Position numbers and translations under genes: made by a program. Shown here piece by piece: positions 2,678 to 15,112 of a DNA stretch of 64,000 bases. The stretch is from the NCBI GenBank assembly GCA_964406665.1, contig CAYOSQ010000005.1, positions 21,929 through 85,928 on the forward strand, given 5' to 3'. The stretch is from an uncultured Planctomycetia bacterium (GTDB lineage: Bacteria > Omnitrophota > Gorgyraeia > VGKH01 > JBHPFN01). The notes under the pieces are model-generated. The model was not told the origin of the DNA, did not search any database, and saw nothing but the letters and a program-made list of their open reading frames with translations. Position 1 is the first letter of the stretch, and every line of letters begins with the position of its first letter.

Positions 2678-3142
2678 GTGCTTAAATTTATGTTAAGAAA
2701 AGCTAGGCTTGATGATGCAGATGTAATCAAATCTTTAATAGATTTTTATGCTAAAGAAGATCTTATGATTCCTCGTTCTCTTAACGAGATATACGAGAAC
2801 ATCAGGGATTTTTGGGTATACCAGGAAAATGACACTATTGTTGGTTGTTGTGCCCTGCACGTATTTGGCTGGGAAGGTTTAGCAGAAATAAAATCGTTCG
2901 CGGTTGATCAAGCACATCATAAAAAAGGCATCGGCAAAGAGTTAATCTCGTGTTGTTTAAAAGATGCGACAGAGCTAAGAATAAAAAAAATATTTGTTTT
3001 AACATACGTACCAGAGTTTTTTGAAAAGTTTGGTTTTTCCAGGGTGGATAAATCAATGTTCCCGCAGAAGATTTGGGCCGAGTGTTGCAACTGTCCTAAA
3101 TTTCCAGATTGTAAAGAAATTGCACTTATTAAGAAGTTATAA
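2678..3142 (+). CDS. GNAT family N-acetyltransferase (short ArgA-like amino-acid N-acetyltransferase)
   Basis: 154 aa. GNAT acetyl-CoA motif 'HHKKGIGKELI'. Resembles single-domain N-acetylglutamate synthases. A TTGAAA-17-TATAAT-like promoter precedes it at about 2628-2660. Confidence 0.55.
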   Translation: MLKFMLRKARLDDADVIKSLIDFYAKEDLMIPRSLNEIYENIRDFWVYQENDTIVGCCALHVFGWEGLAEIKSFAVDQAHHKKGIGKELISCCLKDATELRIKKIFVLTYVPEFFEKFGFSRVDKSMFPQKIWAECCNCPKFPDCKEIALIKKL

Positions 3143-3153
3143 AGGAGGAAGTA

Positions 3154-4311
3154 ATGGATTATATGTTGACTGAAGAACAGATAATGATTAAAGATTTATG
3201 TAAACAGATCGCCGATGAAAAGATTCGTCCGAAAGCTGCGGAATATGATCAAAGTGAACAGTTTCCCGCAGATATTATGAAGATACTGGCACAGTCAGAT
3301 CTTTTTGGGATTTTTGTCCCAGAAGAATACGGTGGAACCGGCGTAAATGTATTAAGTCTATGTCTGGCTACAGAAGAATTTTCTAAGGCCTGCGGAGGTA
3401 TCGCTGTTTGCTATGCTGCGTCTGCTTTGGGTACTTTTCCTATAATTCTTTTTGGGAATGAGGAGCAGAAGAAAAAATATCTACCACCTCTGGCAAAGGG
3501 AGAAAAGATTGCTGCCTTTGGAATAACAGAGCCTGCTGCAGGTTCTGATGCAAGTGCGATTCAAACCACTGCGAAGAAAGCTGGCGACCACTATATTTTA
3601 AATGGAACAAAACATTTTATTACAAATGGCGGCGATGCCGAGATATATGTTGTCATAGCTATGACAGATAAATCAAAAGGTCCGCGTGGTGCATCTGCAT
3701 TTATCGTTGAGAAAGGTACACCCGGTTTTGAATTCGGTAAAAAAGAAGATAAGATGGGTATACGTGCATCTTCTACTAGTGAGTTAATCTTTACTGATTG
3801 TAAGATCCCTAAGGAAAATCTTCTAGCCCGCGAAGGGATGGGTTTTATCGTAACAATGAAGACTTTTGATATGAGTCGTCCCGGAGTTGCTGCTCAAGCT
3901 TTAGGGATTGCTCAAGGTGCTCTTGATGAGGCGGTAAAATACGCCAAAGAGCGTGAGCAATTTGGTAAGAATATAGGAAACTTTCAGGGGATTCAATGGA
4001 TGCTTGCTGATATGGCAACAGAAGTAGAAGCCGCTAGAGCTCTTGTTTATTCGGTTGCCCGCATGCTTGATAATGGTAATACAAAAGTCGCTAAAGAATC
4101 AGCAATGGCAAAGATGTATGCGTCAGATGTTGCTATGCGCGTCTCTACAGATGCTGTTCAGATTCTTGGTGGTTATGGCTATATGAAAGATTATCCAGTC
4201 GAGAAGTATATGCGTGATGCTAAGATTACCCAGATTTATGAGGGGACTAATCAAATCCAAAGAAACATAATCGCATTAAATCTTTTTAAGGAGCTAGCTT
4301 CGAGAAAGTAA
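3154..4311 (+). CDS. Acyl-CoA dehydrogenase (short-chain/butyryl-CoA dehydrogenase-like)
   Basis: 385 aa with canonical ACAD blocks ('AFGITEPAAGSD', 'YEGTNQIQR', catalytic Glu near the C-terminus). RBS 'aaggaggaag' upstream. Confidence 0.9.
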   Translation: MDYMLTEEQIMIKDLCKQIADEKIRPKAAEYDQSEQFPADIMKILAQSDLFGIFVPEEYGGTGVNVLSLCLATEEFSKACGGIAVCYAASALGTFPIILFGNEEQKKKYLPPLAKGEKIAAFGITEPAAGSDASAIQTTAKKAGDHYILNGTKHFITNGGDAEIYVVIAMTDKSKGPRGASAFIVEKGTPGFEFGKKEDKMGIRASSTSELIFTDCKIPKENLLAREGMGFIVTMKTFDMSRPGVAAQALGIAQGALDEAVKYAKEREQFGKNIGNFQGIQWMLADMATEVEAARALVYSVARMLDNGNTKVAKESAMAKMYASDVAMRVSTDAVQILGGYGYMKDYPVEKYMRDAKITQIYEGTNQIQRNIIALNLFKELASRK

Positions 4312-4337
4312 ATTTATTGTATACCAGGTTATTAAAA

Positions 4338-4370
4338 GGCGTTTTGGCTGAATTACCAGAGCGCCTTTTT
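4338..4370 (+). terminator. Rho-independent terminator downstream of the acyl-CoA dehydrogenase
   Basis: GGCGTTTTGG...CCAGAGCGCC imperfect hairpin followed by TTTTT. Confidence 0.6.
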
Positions 4371-4452
4371 CATCTTGCCAAATTTACAAAAAAGATGTAA
4401 TATATTTATCTATTGAAGGTATCTTTTAGAGGAAATATAAAAAGGAGGAATC

Positions 4453-5007
4453 ATGGTATTTGGAATAGTTTTATTAGTACTTATACTGATTCTTATTGGA
4501 TGGTTTTTTGGAGTTTATAATTCATTAGTCAAGTTAAGGGTTAGGATTAAAAACGCTTGGTCGCAGATAGATGTTCAGCTTAAGCGTCGCCATGATCTTA
4601 TTCCTAATCTTGTAGAGACCGCTAAGGGATATATGGCACATGAGAAAGATACCCTTGAGAAAGTTATTAAGGCGCGTACTCAGGCAATTGATGCATCAAA
4701 TTTAAAGGATAAGGCTCAGGCTGAGAATTTTCTCACCCAGACTTTACGTTCATTGTTTGCTGTATCAGAGAGATATCCAGATCTTAAGGCAAACCAGAAT
4801 ATGTTAAAACTTCAGGAAGAGCTTACTTCAACGGAAAATAAGATTGCTTTTGCCCGGCAATATTATAACGACGAAGTTATGCGTTTTAATACTGCTATTC
4901 AGGTGGTGCCTAATAATATAGTCTCTGGCATGTGTAATTTTACTAAGGAAGAATTCTTCGAAATAGAAGATGCTTCGCAAAAAGAAACTCCTGAGGTAAA
5001 ATTCTAA
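4453..5007 (+). CDS. lemA: LemA family protein
   Basis: N-terminal TM helix followed by the LemA signature ('NSLVKLRVRIKNAWSQIDVQLKRRHDLIPNLVETAKGY'). Confidence 0.85.
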   Translation: MVFGIVLLVLILILIGWFFGVYNSLVKLRVRIKNAWSQIDVQLKRRHDLIPNLVETAKGYMAHEKDTLEKVIKARTQAIDASNLKDKAQAENFLTQTLRSLFAVSERYPDLKANQNMLKLQEELTSTENKIAFARQYYNDEVMRFNTAIQVVPNNIVSGMCNFTKEEFFEIEDASQKETPEVKF

Positions 5008-5033
5008 ATCCTTAAAACTTTTCTTAAAAACAT

Positions 5034-6698
5034 ATGCCTTTTTCCTTTATAGATATAGAAGAGAAAAAGAGCAGGCTGATATTTCTTGTATTTGCCTCTT
5101 TAATAGTTTTCTATTTTGCCACTGCCTGGCTTTTGGTTTTAGTGGTCAAAAATACCACGTTTCTTTATTACAGCAGTTCCAGAATAACGAAGTTTACTTT
5201 CCCTACAGCAAATCAAACATTCATAGCGTTAATAGTTGCATTTGTGGCCGGTTTGACTCACTGGGCATTTTCAACGCATAATCTTATCCAGAAAATCACC
5301 TCTTCGGTCGATGCTTATTTTGCAGATTCTAAGGATACGTATCATCAGTATTTAAAAAACATTGTAGATGAGGTTTCTGTTGCAGTAGGAGGGAGAAATA
5401 TTGATGCCTATGTTATCCCCTCGTCTGCAATGAATGCATTCTCAATCGCCGATTTTGAGGGTAATGCTGTAATCGGAGCAACAGAAGGTTTGCTTGCCCG
5501 TTTAAACAGGGCACAGATTGAAGCTGTAGTTGGGCATGAAGCTGCTCATATCGTAAGCGGTGATTGTCTTAACGCAACTTTAATATGTTCTTTATCTGAG
5601 CTTTACAGAGAATCATTCTCGAAATTATCTCAAGCAATAAGGGGTTCGCGTGGTAGAGGAGGTATACAGATAATGCCTGTTTTGTTAGTTCTTGGCATTA
5701 TGAATATTCTAAATAAATTATTAAATAGTTTCATTTCGCGACAGAGAGAATATCGTGCTGATGCAGTTGCTGTTAGGCTTACGCGAGACCCTCTTAGCCT
5801 TGCCCAAGCTCTTAAGATTATATCAAGTAAATGGAACGGTGCAGGTTTAAGCGGAGAAAACCTGGAGTCAATTTTCATTGTAAGCCCGAAATTAAATGCT
5901 CTTGATGAAAAAGATGGTTTAGGACCAGATCTTTTTTCTACTCATCCACCAGTAAGAAAAAGAATACAGGTACTTTTAGATATTGCTCATGAGGATGAAA
6001 AAACATTAGAAGAAAATATCAAGAATATGAGAAGGGCTTCTCCGGTTGCTAAAGCAGAATTCACAACTGATAAGCCAAAAGATAAAAAGAAATGGTTTGT
6101 TTTTAAAGAGAGTAAGTGGCAAGGTCCTTTTGGAATTCCAGAATTGAGAACACTGCCGGGTTTTTTACCTACTGATTGGATAAAGCTCGAAGGTGTAAAT
6201 GGCGTATCTGATGCATTTCAAGATAAAGATATTGCAGAGATTTTTGAAGAAAATAATAGTGCTGCAAATGTAGAAAAAACAGGATGTGCATGTCCACATT
6301 GTCATGTTGGCTTAGCTGAAATTAATTATGAGGGTGCGCCAGCTTTTAAGTGTCTGCATTGTGAAGGTGTTTTTGTTGAGCACAGTAAGATCCCACGCAT
6401 ATTAATACGTAAGGATAAGGCTTTTTCAAAAGAAGTTGAGGAGTTAGCCAATGCAGTACACAAAACAAAAAAGCCGACGTATAAAGATTTTGATAAACAT
6501 AAGGGAAGCAAAAGCTGGGTTATTGATTGCCCAAAATGCCATAAAAAAATGAAGAGGCAATATTTTGTTTATTCATATCCAGTAGAAATTGATCGCTGCT
6601 GGAGTTGTAGTGGGATTTGGTTTGATAAGCAGGAGCTGGAAGTCTTACAGTATATCTATGAATATAAAGATAAGTTTTTTTCCGGAAAGCAATTTTAA
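5034..6698 (+). CDS. M48-family zinc metallopeptidase (HtpX-like) with two C-terminal zf-TFIIB-type zinc-ribbon domains
   Basis: N-terminal TM helices. HExxH 'HEAAHI' with downstream 'STHPPVRKRI' as the third-ligand region. C-terminus has two CxxC...CxxC ribbons ('CPHCHVGL...CLHCEGVFVE' and 'CPKCHKKM...CWSCSGIWFDKQELE'). Confidence 0.7.
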   Translation: MPFSFIDIEEKKSRLIFLVFASLIVFYFATAWLLVLVVKNTTFLYYSSSRITKFTFPTANQTFIALIVAFVAGLTHWAFSTHNLIQKITSSVDAYFADSKDTYHQYLKNIVDEVSVAVGGRNIDAYVIPSSAMNAFSIADFEGNAVIGATEGLLARLNRAQIEAVVGHEAAHIVSGDCLNATLICSLSELYRESFSKLSQAIRGSRGRGGIQIMPVLLVLGIMNILNKLLNSFISRQREYRADAVAVRLTRDPLSLAQALKIISSKWNGAGLSGENLESIFIVSPKLNALDEKDGLGPDLFSTHPPVRKRIQVLLDIAHEDEKTLEENIKNMRRASPVAKAEFTTDKPKDKKKWFVFKESKWQGPFGIPELRTLPGFLPTDWIKLEGVNGVSDAFQDKDIAEIFEENNSAANVEKTGCACPHCHVGLAEINYEGAPAFKCLHCEGVFVEHSKIPRILIRKDKAFSKEVEELANAVHKTKKPTYKDFDKHKGSKSWVIDCPKCHKKMKRQYFVYSYPVEIDRCWSCSGIWFDKQELEVLQYIYEYKDKFFSGKQF

Positions 6699-9416: not shown

Positions 9417-9474
9417 CTGTTTCTTTTTGGGAGCAGAGTTTTTATTTTGGCGAGAATTAAAAAAGGGGGAAGCA

Positions 9475-10776
9475 ATGTTTAGAAGAAAAAGAAGCAATAA
9501 TTCAGGTATATCTTTGGTAGAAATTTTGGTTACTGTTTTTATTGTTGTATTGCTATTATCTACAGCGGTAACAACACTTGTCAGAGGAGCTAGGTTAAGA
9601 GAGGTAGCTGATCAAAAGACAAGGGCAATATTAGATGGGCAAAGTGTTTTTGAAGCGATGCGCGAAATTGCTCAAAATGCTGGAATAAATGATTTGTACA
9701 GGTGCGGCGCATCTTTTCGTGCAAATGCATATGTTGATTTGAATCAAGTTTTAGGCGGTGCGTCACTTTTAGATGAGCAAATACGTATTTTTTATCCCAG
9801 TGGTGTTACGGCACGTCCATTGCATTGTAGGTTGCAGATTAGCTGGACAGATTTTCGCGGTCAAACCGTTGCAGAAACAATAGAAACGAAATTTTGGGAA
9901 TTGGTTGCAGTAACTCCTGATAATGGAAGCTGTGGCACCTGCTTCCTCGCCGGCACCCCTATCCTTATGGCTGATGGCTCAACTAAGGATATTGAAACAA
10001 TTAAGGTAGGAGATACTGTAATAGCCTTTGATCAAGAATCTGGTAAGAATAAATCTGATGAGGTAGTTGAGACATTCATTCATGAAGAAGATAGCTATCT
10101 TTTAATCAATAATCGCATTAAGGCAACATCCAACCACCCTGTATTTCATAAAGGAAGATGGGTAGATATCGGATTGCTTAACATAGGTGATGAATTAACT
10201 AAGGTAGATGGTTCTAAAGAAAAGATCACCAGCATAGAAAAGATCAAAGAACCTGTAATGGTATACAACCTTGAGGTTAACCCTTATCATACATATTATG
10301 CTGATAACATATTAGCTCATAATAAGGGCTGTCTATTACCAGGCACAACTATACTTATGGCTGATGGCACTAACAAGTTTATTGAAAATATAGTTACCGG
10401 GGATAAAGTAACCTCTTATGATGAAGAATCTAAGACCAAGTTAAAAGATACAGTTAAAGAAGTATTCATGCATGAGGTACAAGGATACCTGATAATCAAT
10501 GATAGCATTAAAGTAACAGCAGAACACCCCTTCTTCTCTAATGGTATATGGGTTAGAGCAAAAGATCTTAAAGAAGGAGATATATTACTTACTCAAGAAG
10601 GTAAAGAAGAAGCTATTACCAGCATAAAAGCTGTTGATAAGAAGATCGTCGTTTACAACATTGAAGTAAACCCATATCACAACTACTTTGCTAATGGATA
10701 TCTGGTGCATAATAAAAGTTTGCCACAGGTACCTGTTCCACCACCAGATCCACCAGGTGGAGGATATGGGAATTAG
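9475..10776 (+). CDS. Type IV pilin-like (pseudopilin) protein with two tandem C-terminal Hint / bacterial intein-like (BIL) domains
   Basis: RBS 'aaagggggaag'. Class III signal 'MFRRKRSNNSG|ISLVEILV' (Gly-1, Glu+5). A pilin globular region with a Cys pair follows. Then two ~135-aa repeats, each starting with Cys ('CFLAGTPILMADGS', 'CLLPGTTILMADGT'), containing TxxH ('TSNH', 'TAEH') and ending 'VNPYHxY...HN'. Pro-rich tail. Confidence 0.7.
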   Translation: MFRRKRSNNSGISLVEILVTVFIVVLLLSTAVTTLVRGARLREVADQKTRAILDGQSVFEAMREIAQNAGINDLYRCGASFRANAYVDLNQVLGGASLLDEQIRIFYPSGVTARPLHCRLQISWTDFRGQTVAETIETKFWELVAVTPDNGSCGTCFLAGTPILMADGSTKDIETIKVGDTVIAFDQESGKNKSDEVVETFIHEEDSYLLINNRIKATSNHPVFHKGRWVDIGLLNIGDELTKVDGSKEKITSIEKIKEPVMVYNLEVNPYHTYYADNILAHNKGCLLPGTTILMADGTNKFIENIVTGDKVTSYDEESKTKLKDTVKEVFMHEVQGYLIINDSIKVTAEHPFFSNGIWVRAKDLKEGDILLTQEGKEEAITSIKAVDKKIVVYNIEVNPYHNYFANGYLVHNKSLPQVPVPPPDPPGGGYGN

Positions 10777-10816
10777 AGCTTGAAAACTTTGAAGTATATA
10801 TTTTTGAAGTTATAGT

Positions 10817-11356
10817 TTGGAGATGGTTATGAGATTTATGTATACAACAAAAAAAGGATTTACTTTCATGGAAACTTTAGTTGCTACCTTGGTTACCACT
10901 GTTATGTCTGCAGTCGTGATAACCACGATAGTTTGTTTAATGAATTTCTTTTTTGGGGAAGTTGCCAATGCTGAACTAAAACGGAAGGCTCACCAGTCAT
11001 TATCAACAATTATCCAGGATTTAAGAACTGCTGAGCCTGATGGAGCTAATGGTATTGATGTTTTAAATGATGGTGATAACAATAAGATTACTGCACGACT
11101 TGCAGGTGGTTGGGATGCTAATGGTTTTCTTGTGTATTCTACTGATGATACTCATTATTGGTTAGATGGAGATGAACTGGTTAAAGACAATATTGATACT
11201 GGAGAACGTAGAGTTCTCTGTAATCTTGCTTCAAGATTTAACTGTACAGAATATGCTGAAGGTCATTATTCTATGACCTTAATTTTAACTAAGGATACTG
11301 TGTTGAAAACAATTACTTATACTGCTACTGAAAACTTTGGTGTAAGAAATGATTAG
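10817..11356 (+). CDS. Prepilin-type N-terminal cleavage/methylation domain protein (minor pilin-like)
   Basis: 'KKG|FTFMETLVATLV' class III signal with Glu+5 followed by a hydrophobic helix. Start could be at one of the in-frame Met codons 10817-10838. Confidence 0.6.
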   Translation: MEMVMRFMYTTKKGFTFMETLVATLVTTVMSAVVITTIVCLMNFFFGEVANAELKRKAHQSLSTIIQDLRTAEPDGANGIDVLNDGDNNKITARLAGGWDANGFLVYSTDDTHYWLDGDELVKDNIDTGERRVLCNLASRFNCTEYAEGHYSMTLILTKDTVLKTITYTATENFGVRND

Positions 11357-11371
11357 TTTATAATGCAAAAT

Positions 11372-11567
11372 TTGAAAGGGTAGTTAAAATGCTAGCTATG
11401 AGATTACGCAAAAATGGACTTGCTATGATATTGAGTTTGGTGCTGACACTTGTTGTGTCTTGGGTAACAGTACCTATAATCATGACAGCTTTAGGGCATA
11501 CTCAAAATTCCAAAATAACAACCACTGCAATTGAAGCTAGAGAGGTAGCTGAAGCCGGAATAGCTGA
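11372..11567 (+). repeat. 196-bp direct repeat (RBS + 5' coding end), copy 1; partner at 13254..13449
   Basis: Identical to 13254..13449 except for 1 mismatch (11546 t vs c). The bodies downstream are only about 50% identical at protein level. Confidence 0.9.
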
Positions 11568-13207
11568 GGATTAAGGACGGCTTTACTAATAATTCTCTTC
11601 CTGCCAACTTTCCTAAAAACCCTAGTGAAACCGGCTCTAGTTTTTCTTATAATATCTGGCCAGGTGGAGAAGCCTTTCCAGTAGGAAGTGGTTCTGAATA
11701 TTCAGTAAATGTAGAATTAACCTTGGCTACTAATGACTTCGTTGAAGGAATAGGTGGAAACGGAGTGTATCGCTATATTTTAACCTCTAGCGGTACTGTC
11801 CCAACTATGGGTGGAGAGGTTAAGAAAACTGTTCAGGCAGGAGTAACATTTGATTATTTCTTTGGTGAGAATGTTAGGATGTGCGAAACTGACGAAGGTC
11901 CAGATTGCACAAGAGATCTAGGACATTCTTATTTCAATAATCAAAAGTCAATTATTCATTTAGATACAACTAACATAGCTGAGGGACGCTATCTTCGTCC
12001 AGGCAGATATAACCTATCATATTTCGGAAGGTATGGAGAAGGTCAGGGACCGGGTGCTGAGGAGGACCATGCTCGTCAAAGTGCTGAGGACCTTGTGCTT
12101 CTTTTTGATGAATATAGATTAGAGTTTCCAGAATGGCGGGATGCTAACGGTGATCACCTCGGACGCGATCCAGGAGGTGGAGTGCAGTATGAAGAATTTT
12201 TAGTTGACTACAATTTACAGGATCATAACGAACAATTTTTTCAGTATATAGATGAAAATGGTACAAATAACGAAGACAGCCCACCCTTCAATTTTGAGGT
12301 TTTAAGCCGTGATCCAGAAAACGAAGATGATGTGTTTATCGCAGAATTGAACTGCAGATTTAATTCTTCGCAATCAGCCGGCTGTGAAGACGATCTTGAT
12401 TTAGAACCTGGTGCACCCTGTACCCAATTTTGTGATGCTACTGAAGCAGCATTTGGAAGTGGTTCTTGGCCAGATTATCAGGAAGCATGTATGAACGCTT
12501 GCTATAGAAACAGTAGTGAGGTTTCATTTTCTTTTCAAGATGTTCATCCTGATTCAGAGGCGCATGTTCGTTGCTCGACTCCTGATGTATGCTTGAGACA
12601 TTGCTCTCATAACTATCAGTGGAATTATTATGATTCAACATGTCGTCAGCAGTGCGATACTACACATGGTTTTCTCCCTAGCAGAAAACAGCCCCAGGTG
12701 TGGATGCAATGTATGGTAGACTGCACTAATATTGAAGAATCTTTTGTTGCAAGTGAGTGTAATCAGCTATGTGATAATCCAGATTTATGTTTTGATTACT
12801 TTGCAGGAGATTATCAGCGTTATGCTAGAACCGATGATCCCCAGCAAGGTTTTCCTGGAGCACCAATACAGTTAAATTCTGAATGCTTTCAATTGTGTTC
12901 AGGAGTAACTAATATTTGGGGTTGTCGTGAGAGATGTGACAAAAAATTCTTTAGACGAGACACAACAGGAGATATTGTTATTTCTGCAATGAATAGAGTT
13001 GTTAAGGATAAATATGGCAAGTTTTATTGGCATGATGAAGACGATGATAATTCTTGTCATTATCCGCCTTGCGAACCTGCAACTGGTGGAAGTGTACATT
13101 TTGGTGATGGTACTTCACTTGAAATAGGTTTTGTTCTGAATATAGAGCAAGATCAAAGAATTGTAATAGTAGATTTTCAGTGGTTAGAAGTTGGTGGGGA
13201 TTATTAG
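11389..13207 (+). pseudogene. PilX_N-type large cysteine-rich pseudopilin-like protein, frameshifted paralog of 13271..15112
   Basis: N-terminal 62 codons are nearly identical to the downstream gene. An 11-nt deletion relative to copy 2 at about 11567 produces a stop ('GIAED*'). Homology continues in another frame (ORF 11723..13207, TTG as first codon), including all CX3C motifs. Confidence 0.55.
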
Positions 13208-13253
13208 TTTTTTGATTAAATGGATTCTGGTAATTAAATATAACAGCACTGAA

Positions 13254-13449
13254 TTGAAAGGGTAGTTAAAATGCTAGCTATGAGATTACGCAAAAATGGA
13301 CTTGCTATGATATTGAGTTTGGTGCTGACACTTGTTGTGTCTTGGGTAACAGTACCTATAATCATGACAGCTTTAGGGCATACTCAAAATTCCAAAATAA
13401 CAACCACTGCAATTGAAGCTAGAGAGGCAGCTGAAGCCGGAATAGCTGA
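13254..13449 (+). repeat. 196-bp direct repeat, copy 2
   Basis: See 11372..11567. Confidence 0.9.
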
Positions 13450-15112
13450 AGCCTTGATGTGGATTAAGAATGGTTTTACTTATAATACTCTTCCTGCCAA
13501 CTTTCCCAAAAACCCATCCGAAGTCGGCCCTGGCTTTGCTTACGATATCTGGCCAGGTGGAGAAGCCTTTCCTGCAGGAGGAGATAATAAGTATGCTGTA
13601 AATGTAGAATTAACCTTGGCTACTAATAATTTCATTGAAGGAGTAGATGGAAATGGAGAGTATCGCTATATTCTAACCTCTAGCGGTACTGTTCCGACTC
13701 TAGGTGGAGAAATAGAAAAAACTGTTCAGGCAGCAGTAACTTTTGATTATTATTATGGTGATGATATCGATATTTGTACAGTAGGTTCAGGACAAGACTG
13801 CACTAGAGATTTAGGTTATGAATATGTAAATGATAGAAAGCCGATAATTCATCTTGATACAACTAATGAAGCAGAAGGTCGTTATGTGCGTCCTGGTTTT
13901 TATAGCATAAGCTATAACGGTGAGTATGATATTGATCAAGGAGCCGGAGCAGAAACAACTGGACCTGATAGAGAATATGCTATGTATGGTTCAGAAAATA
14001 TGGTTGTATATCTTGATGAAGCAGCTCTTCTTTTTCCTGAGTGGAGAGATTTAGATGGAAATGGACGTGCTTCTTATGGTGGAGAGATTAGTCCTGAAGA
14101 ATTTCTTGTAAAGCCATGGTTGCAAGATTATACGGTTCATTTGTTTGAAAACATTGATGCAAATGGTACAAATGACGACCCTCCATTTAATTTTGAGGTT
14201 ATTGAAAGGGATCCTGAGAATCCTGAAGATAGGTTTATAATTGAATTATTTTGCGAGTCTGATAGCCTCCCAATAGGAAGTTGTTCCGGAGACCTTGATC
14301 TTGAGTCAGGTTCTACATGTTCCAATTTCTGTGAAGCAGTAGAGGATGCATATACAACCTTGGCATGGCCAGACTATGAAGCAGCATGTATGGCTGCCTG
14401 TGGAAGAAATGTTCTTGTAGAATATTCTTTTCAAGATGAACATCCAGATTCAGAGGCTAATGTTCGCTGTGGTGACAGTCAAATATGTTTGATTTATTGC
14501 GCCCACAGCTATCAATGGAATTATTACGATTCTTATTGTCGTCAAATATGTGATGTACATTATAATTTTGATCCTAATGCTCCTAATTATGGTCTTAGGC
14601 AGTCTCGAGATTGGAATGAGTGCATGGTTGATTGCTCAGATTTTATTTATGTAACTCCGGGATTCGAGTGTCAAAATTGGTGCGATGATCATGAGTCTTG
14701 TATGGATTTCTTTAGTGAAGAATATCAGATGAATGCGACAGAAGACAATCCAGCTCAATTTATTCCTGCAGTTGATCCAAGACAATTCATGTCGCAATGC
14801 GATAGAATGTGTAAAAGTGTAGATAATATTGGAGAATGCCGCAGCAGCTGCGATAGAAGATTTTTCCGTCAAGATGTTACAGGCGATATTGTTATAACTT
14901 TAATGAATAAATTGGCTAAAGAGAAACGTAAGAGGTTTCATTGGAATTCAGCAGACGATAATAGCTATGATTGTGAGTGGCCATGTGAACCAATAACTGC
15001 AGGTAGCGTTCATTTCGGAGATGCTGAGGGTACGGCTTTTGAGCTTCAGATAAATGATGATCTTAGAATAATTTTGAAGGATTTTCAGTGGATAGAAATA
15101 CCAAATGAATAA
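13271..15112 (+). CDS. PilX_N-domain pseudopilin-like protein with large cysteine-rich C-terminal region (putative pilus-tip/adhesin component)
   Basis: 'RLRKNG|LAMILSLVLTLVV' prepilin-like signal lacking Glu+5 (as in GspK/PilX), then 'AIEAREAAEAGIAEA' typical of PilX_N. Nine CX3C motifs (CSNFC, CMAAC, CLIYC, CRQIC, CMVDC, CQNWC, CDRMC, CRSSC, CEWPC). RBS 'gaaagggtag'. Confidence 0.65.
   Translation: MLAMRLRKNGLAMILSLVLTLVVSWVTVPIIMTALGHTQNSKITTTAIEAREAAEAGIAEALMWIKNGFTYNTLPANFPKNPSEVGPGFAYDIWPGGEAFPAGGDNKYAVNVELTLATNNFIEGVDGNGEYRYILTSSGTVPTLGGEIEKTVQAAVTFDYYYGDDIDICTVGSGQDCTRDLGYEYVNDRKPIIHLDTTNEAEGRYVRPGFYSISYNGEYDIDQGAGAETTGPDREYAMYGSENMVVYLDEAALLFPEWRDLDGNGRASYGGEISPEEFLVKPWLQDYTVHLFENIDANGTNDDPPFNFEVIERDPENPEDRFIIELFCESDSLPIGSCSGDLDLESGSTCSNFCEAVEDAYTTLAWPDYEAACMAACGRNVLVEYSFQDEHPDSEANVRCGDSQICLIYCAHSYQWNYYDSYCRQICDVHYNFDPNAPNYGLRQSRDWNECMVDCSDFIYVTPGFECQNWCDDHESCMDFFSEEYQMNATEDNPAQFIPAVDPRQFMSQCDRMCKSVDNIGECRSSCDRRFFRQDVTGDIVITLMNKLAKEKRKRFHWNSADDNSYDCEWPCEPITAGSVHFGDAEGTAFELQINDDLRIILKDFQWIEIPNE

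Follow-up and report, generated by a model that had tools for sequence, protein, structure and literature searches.

Results

The candidate minor-pilin cassette

The window, i.e., the whole 64,000-nucleotide stretch of DNA analysed, carries on its + strand two prepilin-like genes followed by two tandem copies of a much larger gene, the product of which is rich in CX3C motifs. The first gene (9427–10776, with ATG 9475 as the likelier start) encodes a prepilin-like minor pilin with the N-terminal motif SNNSG/ISLVEILV (the slash marks the presumed cleavage site) and two C-terminal Hint/intein-like domains. In Pfam it matches N_methyl with E=0.002 and 18.1 bits, which is below the 21.2-bit cutoff, and PT-HINT with 2.5e-42 over two stretches. 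Its apparent counterparts at two related loci (168 aa in L006 and 136 aa in L007), recognized by eye and without an alignment, are too short to accommodate Hint domains. The second gene (10817–11356, + strand) also encodes a prepilin-like minor pilin, with the motif KKG/FTFMETLV and a sub-threshold N_methyl match (E=0.013). Counterparts of 175–218 aa with the same type of prepilin motif at their start are present in L006, L007, and L009, and score 22.1 bits (above the 21.2-bit cutoff) in L006 and 18.7 bits (below it) in L007; N_methyl was found above threshold in three small neighbour proteins. The order small prepilin, medium prepilin, and large CX3C protein(s) is shared by the window, L006, L007, L009, and L010.

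No pilus machinery genes were found within the 64-kb window and its cassette stands alone. In a sister subfamily comprising the large proteins P0008–P0011, on the other hand, the cassette adjoins PPIase-RcpC-secretin genes in all three loci, and a CpaE/CpaF fusion comes next in both contigs that are long enough. The window does encode MlaDEF, SurA, and a DegP-like protease, which indicates a cell with a periplasm and an outer membrane.

The tandem large genes

The intact large gene, paralog 2 (13271–15112, + strand), encodes 613 aa with 24 cysteines and nine CX3C motifs, and is proposed to specify a large K-type/KilN-like minor pilin. Residues 1–160 (13271–13750) constitute a pilin-like module with the leader RKNG/LAMIL, a long alpha-1 helix with the motif AxEAAEAG and a beta-sheet, whereas the Cys-rich all-alpha domain spans residues 328–527 (14252–14851) and has its counterpart in paralog 1 at 12353–12937, all on the + strand. 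Paralog 1 is interrupted by an 11-nt deletion relative to paralog 2. Its N-terminal fragment (11389–11574, + strand; 61 codons) encodes the leader plus alpha-1, the hydrophobic helix, and ends at a TAA after the deletion. The body is read in another frame (11564–13207, + strand), which is open for 547 codons and specifies 24 cysteines, eight CX3C and one CX4C. The sequence-only reading had described two paralogous proteins that are only about 50% identical in the body; both tandem copies are present and are 53% identical across 556 aligned residues, with 24 cysteines each at aligned positions, but the frameshift in the upstream copy had been overlooked. The shared motifs WPDY(E/Q)xACMxAC and FPEWRD were found in both paralogs as claimed. 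The claim of nine CxxxC pairs in each is correct for paralog 2, but paralog 1 has eight, as the ninth motif of paralog 2 (CEWPC, residues 568–572; 14972–14986, + strand) is CX4C (CHYPPC) in paralog 1. The short cysteine spacings of paralog 2 are exactly the nine CX3C and no other kind, while the shuffled whole protein averaged 0.9 and the shuffled Cys-rich region 1.8, with a maximum of 8 (P<5e-5). The CX3C array is thus real and far above chance expectation.

The frame break of paralog 1 is also present in three further metagenome assemblies (L001–L003) from different samples. It lies at the edge of a near-identical 5' segment (11372–11567, + strand), which differs by one mismatch from 13254–13449 of paralog 2 and takes in the 17 nt that precede the start codon; both alignment and blastn place the 3' edge of this segment exactly at the 11-nt deletion. 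From these sequence features the segment may be read as a gene-conversion tract. The tandem pair in L009 is the same kind of mosaic, its two members having identical N-termini but bodies that have diverged, and identities across genomes do not sort upstream and downstream copies into orthologs. Paralog 1 is probably a recently inactivated pseudogene. Rescue by programmed frameshifting at 11564–11574 was rejected as the 11-nt frame overlap (CTGAGGATTAA) is without a slippery codon. An assembly artefact is an unlikely source of the deletion, which recurs unchanged in L001–L003; there is a small chance that the pipelines share an artefact at the edge of the repeat.

Conservation of the cysteines

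An exhaustive HMMER search identified only about 11 relatives, and all named sources are Candidatus Omnitrophota. A word-index protein search, whether with a single protein or with the 11-sequence profile, matched the two window proteins and nothing else. A degenerate DNA pattern (FQxxHPDSE…C…C…C) gave no match in the metagenome contigs, nor did a protein-guided scan, and a genome scan for further loci returned just the SAG locus found before. Across the 11 proteins, which are 27–55% identical to the intact copy, 16 of 20 cysteine positions are invariant and the other four nearly so, i.e., the cysteines are kept in relatives down to 27% identity. The sequence-only reading had named a lack of cysteine conservation in orthologs from related genomes as a ground for refutation, and on this count it stands. 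Family-wide conservation covers eight CX3C motifs, while the ninth (568/572) is confined to the closer subfamily.

Additional cysteines are mostly gained or lost two at a time, namely at 169+177, 269+274, 361+368/369 (364+368 in P0004), 428+433, and 568+572. In P0008–P0011 positions 396 and 481 were acquired together, by which C400 and C477 each become part of a CX3C and a fifth twin unit arises. Three members have odd cysteine totals, and P0007 is without C354 and C523, which are located in different hairpins (see below) and whose loss does not fit with simple intra-hairpin pairing.

Predicted fold of the Cys-rich domain

The domain-only AlphaFold2 model is all-alpha, with a pLDDT of 76, a pTM of 0.72 and values of 83–93 for most 10-residue blocks of the core; the full-length model is weak except in two regions (pLDDT 61.8). 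All eight conserved CX3C motifs are helical in the prediction, and each helix joins with the next to give four CX3C-Xn-CX3C units, in paralog 2 residues 350/354+373/377, 406/410+423/427, 451/455+467/471, and 510/514+523/527. The domain further contains a fifth helix pair with C400 and C477, and a loop pair, C328/C338. The four units are conserved in the family, and their spacings in the intact copy (n = 18, 12, 11, and 8) fall within the range of CX3C-X4-20-CX3C, a helix-loop-helix disulfide motif (PMC11591084). Searched against PDB sequences, the profile had 0 matches at E<=10, Foldseek with the full-length model against the PDB gave nothing below E=0.1, and the Cys-rich domain is without a counterpart among solved structures. 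No homology was found to Tim10/DDP, nor to the hairpinin/vicilin precursors of plants.

The sequence-only reading had left a choice between disulfide-stapled twin-CX3C hairpins and a metal-binding array. Hairpins fit the predicted helix pairing and the cysteine conservation, and judged from the model the CX3C pairs are most likely disulfide staples. This is favoured over metal because cysteines come and go mostly by twos and not by fours, and because CXXC, CXXCH, CX3CH, and the ferredoxin-type CX2CX2CX3C are absent from all 11 aligned members; on the same absence haem or ferredoxin-type binding was rejected. A metal array is quite unlikely. In place of disulfides, thiolates in groups of four would then coordinate Zn2+ or Fe-S clusters between paired helices, as might suit a pilus tip that is redox-active or conductive. 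Such a reading could draw on the small Tim proteins, which in their reduced twin-CX3C form can bind zinc, on the failure to identify a gene for a disulfide-forming enzyme within the 64-kb window, and on the missing C354 and C523 of P0007. Many Omnitrophota are moreover anaerobic and conductive pilins have been predicted in them (PMC10066038). Against this, the cysteines are predicted at i and i+4 within helices, the isolated pairs 169/177, 269/274, and 328/338 span short loops as is typical of disulfides, and the pilin-type leader predicts an exported protein.

Classification of the large protein

The large protein had been called a PilX_N protein. However, neither window copy matches Pfam PilX_N (PF14341) at E<=1 and none of the 11 family members is above the Pfam threshold, the single weak match having E=0.018. 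This identity is therefore not upheld, and what links the protein to pili is the neighbourhood of its gene, together with a fold that weakly matches GspK. PilX_N domains start with a hydrophobic helix followed by an Ala/Glu-rich motif of the AxxAAEAG type; the family alignment shows a conserved A-x-E-[AI]-[AS]-E-[AS]-G, the likeness of which to PilX_N was judged by eye. Sequence models of PilX_N, GspK (NCBIfam NF037980), and TadG were likewise not matched above threshold, and the TadG/TadE-like Pfam models PF13400 and PF07811 matched none of the 11 members at E<=10 and none of the small neighbours.

Two traits of K-type minor pilins are present. First, the prepilin-like leader, the cleavage of which is predicted, has Gly at -1 and no Glu at +5: the presumed site of the intact copy (RKNG/LAMIL) conforms to this, and among the nine members with the N-terminus present Gly is found at -1 in seven (Ala in P0003, Ser in P0008) and Glu at +5 in none. 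Second, the large gene directly follows the genes of two smaller minor pilins, in the positions expected of I-like and J-like ones. For GspK itself the fold match is weak and Foldseek gave no match. A trait of TadG/KilN, i.e., nearby Tad machinery (RcpC, RcpA/CpaC secretin, CpaE/TadZ, and CpaF/TadA), is seen in three of three loci of the P0008–P0011 subfamily.

Discussion

We consider it somewhat more probable than otherwise that the CX3C proteins are large tip-forming K-type minor pilins of the GspK/PilX/TadG/KilN kind, which carry a disulfide-stapled distal domain and probably belong to a Tad-like filament. The large protein would, together with the two small minor pilins encoded upstream (9427–10776 and 10817–11356), form an initiating cap that probably comes to occupy the tip of a type IV filament, and a Tad-like machine is probably what assembles the copy found in the window. 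The N-terminal hydrophobic helix and the beta-sheet would dock into the filament, and the part turned outward would be a poorly predicted beta-rich region with the all-alpha domain of about 200 residues inserted into it. About ten disulfides would rigidify this domain: two CX3C motifs would staple each of the four hairpins, C400-C477 would link the fifth helix pair and C328-C338 the loop. The result may be a stable, protease-resistant surface that recognizes or adheres to a partner cell or surface, which would make the protein a putative adhesin. As the tandem copies have a homogenized N-terminal docking module and a diverged distal domain, they could serve as interchangeable tips.

Alternatively, the large protein could cap a short pseudopilus as GspK does, one that stays in the periplasm and powers secretion via a secretin, with the Cys-rich domain touching cargo or secretin; it would then not be the exposed tip of an adhesive pilus. 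This is unlikely. The neighbouring RcpC, CpaC-type secretin, and CpaE/CpaF fusion are Tad-like and not Gsp, and GspC, L, M, and F genes were not seen among the genes listed for the P0008–P0011 loci. Loci with several tandem copies that diverge from one another are furthermore better suited to variable tips that face outward than to a conserved piston cap.

A different function of the distal domain can be imagined by analogy to plant alpha-hairpinins, which are antimicrobial or protease-inhibiting. The Cys-rich domain would then be an effector made of tandem alpha-hairpinin-like modules that damages or disarms a host or prey cell, whether it stays on the tip or is set free. The four units do fit the motif of alpha-hairpinins, for which plants are known to have tandem modular precursors (PMC11591084), contact-dependent killing by Myxococcus requires Tad-like tips (PMC12075869), and Omnitrophota are suspected parasites or predators (PMC10066038). 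The units are however predicted to form one compact domain (pTM 0.72) and not beads on cleavable linkers, and no likeness of the domain to any toxin or inhibitor was found in sequence or fold, which makes an effector very improbable.

Omnitrophota are abundant, uncultured, and ultra-small, and are suspected of living on other cells. They have both Tad and T4a pili, for which a link to the attachment to hosts has been made (PMC10066038), and the CX3C proteins may plausibly form the tips of the Tad-like pili. With them, the idea of interchangeable tips that was recently shown in Myxococcus would be carried to a further phylum. The compact domain of four or five twin-CX3C hairpins, which has no structural counterpart among solved structures, would also be a case from bacteria, and outside the cytoplasm, of a motif best known in mitochondria and plant defence peptides. 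It is tempting to speculate further, doubtful as this remains, that the CX3C bundle is a bacterial fold not seen before, which arose independently of small Tims and alpha-hairpinins and acts as a module for recognition (or killing) of host or prey on the tip of a Tad-like pilus, the paralogs being swappable tips. If true, this would provide a defined molecular handle on partner-cell attachment by uncultured Omnitrophota nanobacteria. With about a dozen sequences and a function that is inferred, the impact is limited for now.

Comparison with known systems

A characterized parallel is the Kil (Tad-like) pilus of Myxococcus xanthus, whose Tip complexes consist of KilL, KilM, and KilN, homologs of TadE, TadF, and TadG (Herrou et al., 2025, PMC12075869). 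As here, three genes form the cassette for a Kil Tip and encode a small, a medium, and a large pilin-like protein, and there are several paralogous cassettes, some beside a Tad-like machine and others elsewhere in the genome; the window's cassette without adjacent machinery resembles Myxococcus Tip1-3 (PMC12075869). The large tip-forming minor pilins of Kil/Tad have variable distal domains with "numerous predicted intramolecular disulfide bonds" (PMC12075869), and KilN, like the large CX3C protein, has a distal domain without a PDB counterpart and many such predicted disulfides. The lifestyles are also alike, Myxococcus being a predator and Omnitrophota suspected parasites. On the other hand, no sequence homology to Kil was shown, and the tip HMMs of that study match Myxococcota alone (PMC12075869). 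A Pfam Tad/TadE match is absent here, and the small partners bear leaders of the classical N_methyl type. In KilN4 the distal domain consists of a large beta-scaffold with two long helices, in contrast to the predicted all-alpha CX3C bundle, and here it is the large gene itself that is tandemly duplicated, in two or three copies.

Compared to GspK, core minor pilins of the PilX/PilK type, and Thermus ComZ, the protein described here is 2–3 times larger and matches no model above threshold. GspK has a small alpha-domain as its inserted domain and ComZ a beta-solenoid, and neither is known to be Cys-rich. The sequence-only reading had regarded a CX3C array on a pilus-tip protein as new: the literature searched contained no pilin with such an array, but tip pilins with many predicted disulfides were described in 2025 (PMC12075869). 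The arrangement of CX3C-Xn-CX3C on two antiparallel helices is shared with the mitochondrial small Tims (Tim9/Tim10) and with plant alpha-hairpinins and vicilin-derived peptides, and as modular alpha-hairpinin precursors consist of tandem units (PMC11591084), so four such units are found in the Cys-rich domain described here.

The CX3C cassette and its broken paralog

The two CX3C paralogs are the last of four same-strand genes that form a cassette (9427-15112), flanked by gpmA (minus strand) on one side and etfB/etfA on the other. Gene 1 (9427-10776, +) begins with a prepilin-type leader (SNNSG/ISLVEILV; Pfam N_methyl E=0.002, just sub-threshold) and gene 2 (10817-11356, +) carries a weaker prepilin motif (KKG/FTFMETLV). 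Gene 3, the first paralog, consists of an N-terminal ORF of 61 codons ending in TAA (11389-11574, +) and a body that is open for 547 codons in a different frame (11564-13207, +), while gene 4, the second paralog, is unbroken (13271-15112, +; 613 aa). The window genes outside the cassette are housekeeping genes only; they include MlaDEF, SurA and a DegP-like protease, which points to a diderm envelope, and no pilus machinery was found in the window besides the cassette.

Gene 1 also contains two Hint/intein-like domains in tandem (PT-HINT, E=2.5e-42), starting CFLAGT and CLLPGT, followed by a Pro-rich tail of 20 residues. Both end in HN and then Lys, where a canonical intein has a Cys, Ser or Thr nucleophile. 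Apparent counterparts of gene 1 at three loci elsewhere (L006, L007 and L009) are alike by eye and, at 136-168 aa, have no room for Hint domains. It would be unusual for a pilus-tip subunit to carry an autoprocessing domain.

The division of gene 3 into two frames was overlooked in the sequence-only reading. DNA alignment shows that it is caused by an 11-nt deletion relative to gene 4, located exactly at the 3' end of a 196-nt tract that genes 3 and 4 share with one mismatch (11372-11567 vs 13254-13449) and that runs from 17 nt 5' of the ATG to codon 60. Past the deletion the identity is about 85% across the next ~300 nt, and there is no blastn match past ~500 nt. Three contigs from other metagenome samples match the window at 99.9% identity and show this break too. 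We read the tract as a recent gene conversion, the imprecise end of which inactivated gene 3. As the body of gene 3 is still open and every Cys is kept, the inactivation is probably recent.

Conservation of the cysteines

The earlier observation of paralogs about 50% identical in the body, each with nine CX3C pairs, is largely correct. The measured identity is 53%, and both proteins have 24 Cys at aligned positions; the count of nine holds for gene 4, which has no CX0-2C or CX4C spacing, whereas gene 3 has eight CX3C and one CX4C. Shuffling the whole protein or only its Cys-rich stretch gave a mean of 0.9-1.8 CX3C, and none of 20,000 trials produced as many as nine, so the motif array is real. 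The label PilX_N was not confirmed when membership was tested by homology.

A word-indexed search of 5.8 billion clusters returned no relatives beyond the two window proteins. An exhaustive HMMER search brought out 11 relatives (E 5e-111 to 9e-15) and one marginal match among 1.84 billion representatives, and scans of JGI metagenome contigs gave no further family members. Relatives with a named source are from Candidatus Omnitrophota single-cell genomes, and the others are from metagenomes, including the project that gave the contigs nearly identical to the window. The family is thus very small and lineage-restricted.

The expectation that the cysteines would be conserved in relatives was borne out across 11 proteins with 27-55% identity to gene 4 (gene 4 numbering is used throughout). 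Sixteen are invariant (C328, C338, C350, C373, C377, C400, C406, C410, C423, C455, C467, C471, C477, C510, C514 and C527), and C354, C427, C451 and C523 are each absent from one sequence only. This conservation defines the family by eight CX3C motifs and four single Cys. The pair 568/572 is found only in the closer subfamily and the pair 169/177 only in the window paralogs, while members of a distant subfamily (P0008-P0011) have still more CX3C motifs, 9-13 per protein. The most conserved non-Cys features are two acidic motifs beside the Cys array, GDLDLE (D341, D343; residues 341-345) and HPDSE (H391-E395). They flank the first hairpins, show little or no variation, and are candidate ligand or Ca2+ sites.

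Predicted structure and probable disulfides

The full-length AF2 model of gene 4 is mediocre (pLDDT 61.8), with residues 41-160, an N-terminal helix and beta-sheet, confident (block means mostly >80) and the Cys-rich region partly confident. Modelled alone, residues 322-548 reached pLDDT 76 and pTM 0.72, with most 10-residue core blocks at 83-93. This model is all-alpha, each conserved CX3C lies within a helix, and the predicted helices follow each other in pairs (349-360/368-377, 403-417/422-430, 446-461/466-471 and 509-514/520-531). Each of the four pairs makes up one CX3C-Xn-CX3C unit (n = 18, 12, 11 and 8), which is the spacing of disulfide-stapled helix-loop-helix motifs, defined in alpha-hairpinins as CX3C-X4-20-CX3C (PMC11591084). 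C400 and C477 are modelled on two more helices, one before unit 2 and one after unit 3.

The pattern of Cys variation across the family is the best indirect evidence for disulfides. Extra Cys mostly come paired (169+177, 269+274, 361+368/369 or, in P0004, 364+368, 428+433 and 568+572). In the distant subfamily Cys 396 and 481 are gained together, each four residues from C400 or C477, which makes a fifth twin-CX3C unit there. This evidence has caveats: these proteins are one clade, so that each paired gain counts as one event; one member, P0007, is without C354 and C523, which belong to different units; and three family members have odd Cys totals. Less probably, the array binds metal, as the sequence-only reading had also proposed. 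CXXC, CXXCH, CX3CH and CX2CX2CX3C are absent from every family member, which speaks against a haem site and against thioredoxin-like or ferredoxin-like chemistry, and helix-borne CX3C pairs, hairpin spacing and paired Cys gain make disulfide hairpins the best supported reading.

Before the Cys domain, residues ~261-316 of gene 4 (14070-14220) are weakly like a DUF5801 module that occurs repeatedly in an RTX/cadherin-like adhesin of 2306 aa (E=2.7e-4 library-wide; segments of 31-59 residues in BLASTP, 31-47% identical, pairwise E at least 0.004). This hints that the beta-rich region may be an adhesin-type module.

Gene context at other loci

For an association with pili, gene context provides the stronger argument. 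At L006/L008, L007, L009 and L010 the same order recurs: a small prepilin (~140-170 aa), a medium prepilin (~175-218 aa) and one to three large CX3C proteins. Cassettes of the distant subfamily directly adjoin a PPIase, RcpC and a CpaC-type secretin in 3/3 loci, and in the two contigs that extend far enough a CpaE/CpaF fusion comes next; together these genes represent a Tad-like machine. Its ATPase is a single ~716-aa protein (L007 7933-10083; L009 1-198, extending beyond the locus) that matches both the CpaE/TadZ-like ParA and the CpaF/TadA T2SSE families, which points to a fusion of two normally separate components.

At L009 3878-7475 (-) a second tandem family pair (626 and 567 aa) adjoins a Tad-like locus; a Gly/Pro/Ser-rich repeat (…GGASQPKGLPPASGGASQPK…) is inserted in the 626-aa copy. 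The pair is 100% identical over the N-terminal 65 residues and over a 52-residue block of the pilin module, and only ~50-60% identical elsewhere; the first 60 codons of the window paralogs are near-identical, with one amino-acid difference. Such mosaic identity fits a shared docking module with diversifying tips. The L006 contig carries a second small/medium/large cassette (2742-5363, +; 151, 183 and 509 aa), in which the 509-aa protein has the AEAG-type N-terminus of the CX3C family and a C-terminal part wholly unlike it by inspection; that genome would then have a further type of tip.

Proposed function and comparison with known systems

From this context and a recent Myxococcus precedent we infer a pilus-tip role for the CX3C proteins. 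The large protein would be exported, its leader perhaps cut by prepilin peptidase, and its distal domain oxidised in the periplasm, where about ten disulfides would make it a rigid bundle. It may then join the two small minor pilins via their alpha-1 helices in an initiation complex, below which the major pilin would polymerise and drive the complex through the secretin, placing the CX3C domain at the filament tip, where it could bind a partner cell or surface. Less probably, the large protein is a periplasmic pseudopilus cap, or its Cys domain an effector-like hairpinin array.

Tad and T4a pili are common in Omnitrophota, in which some secretins fall into one group with secretins from predatory myxobacteria (PMC10066038). 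The closest described system to the CX3C family is the Kil Tad-like pilus of Myxococcus, for which heterotrimeric 'Tips' of KilL, KilM and KilN (TadE/F/G-like) are predicted, with the large KilN as the tip backbone exposing a variable distal domain without PDB homolog; there are four paralogous tip clusters at separate loci, with 'numerous predicted intramolecular disulfide bonds' (PMC12075869). The CX3C family is like KilN, TadG and GspK in architecture and context, whereas a homology test did not place it among them. New relative to these proteins are the tandem duplication of the large gene and the predicted distal module, in which four or five twin-CX3C hairpins form a compact bundle.
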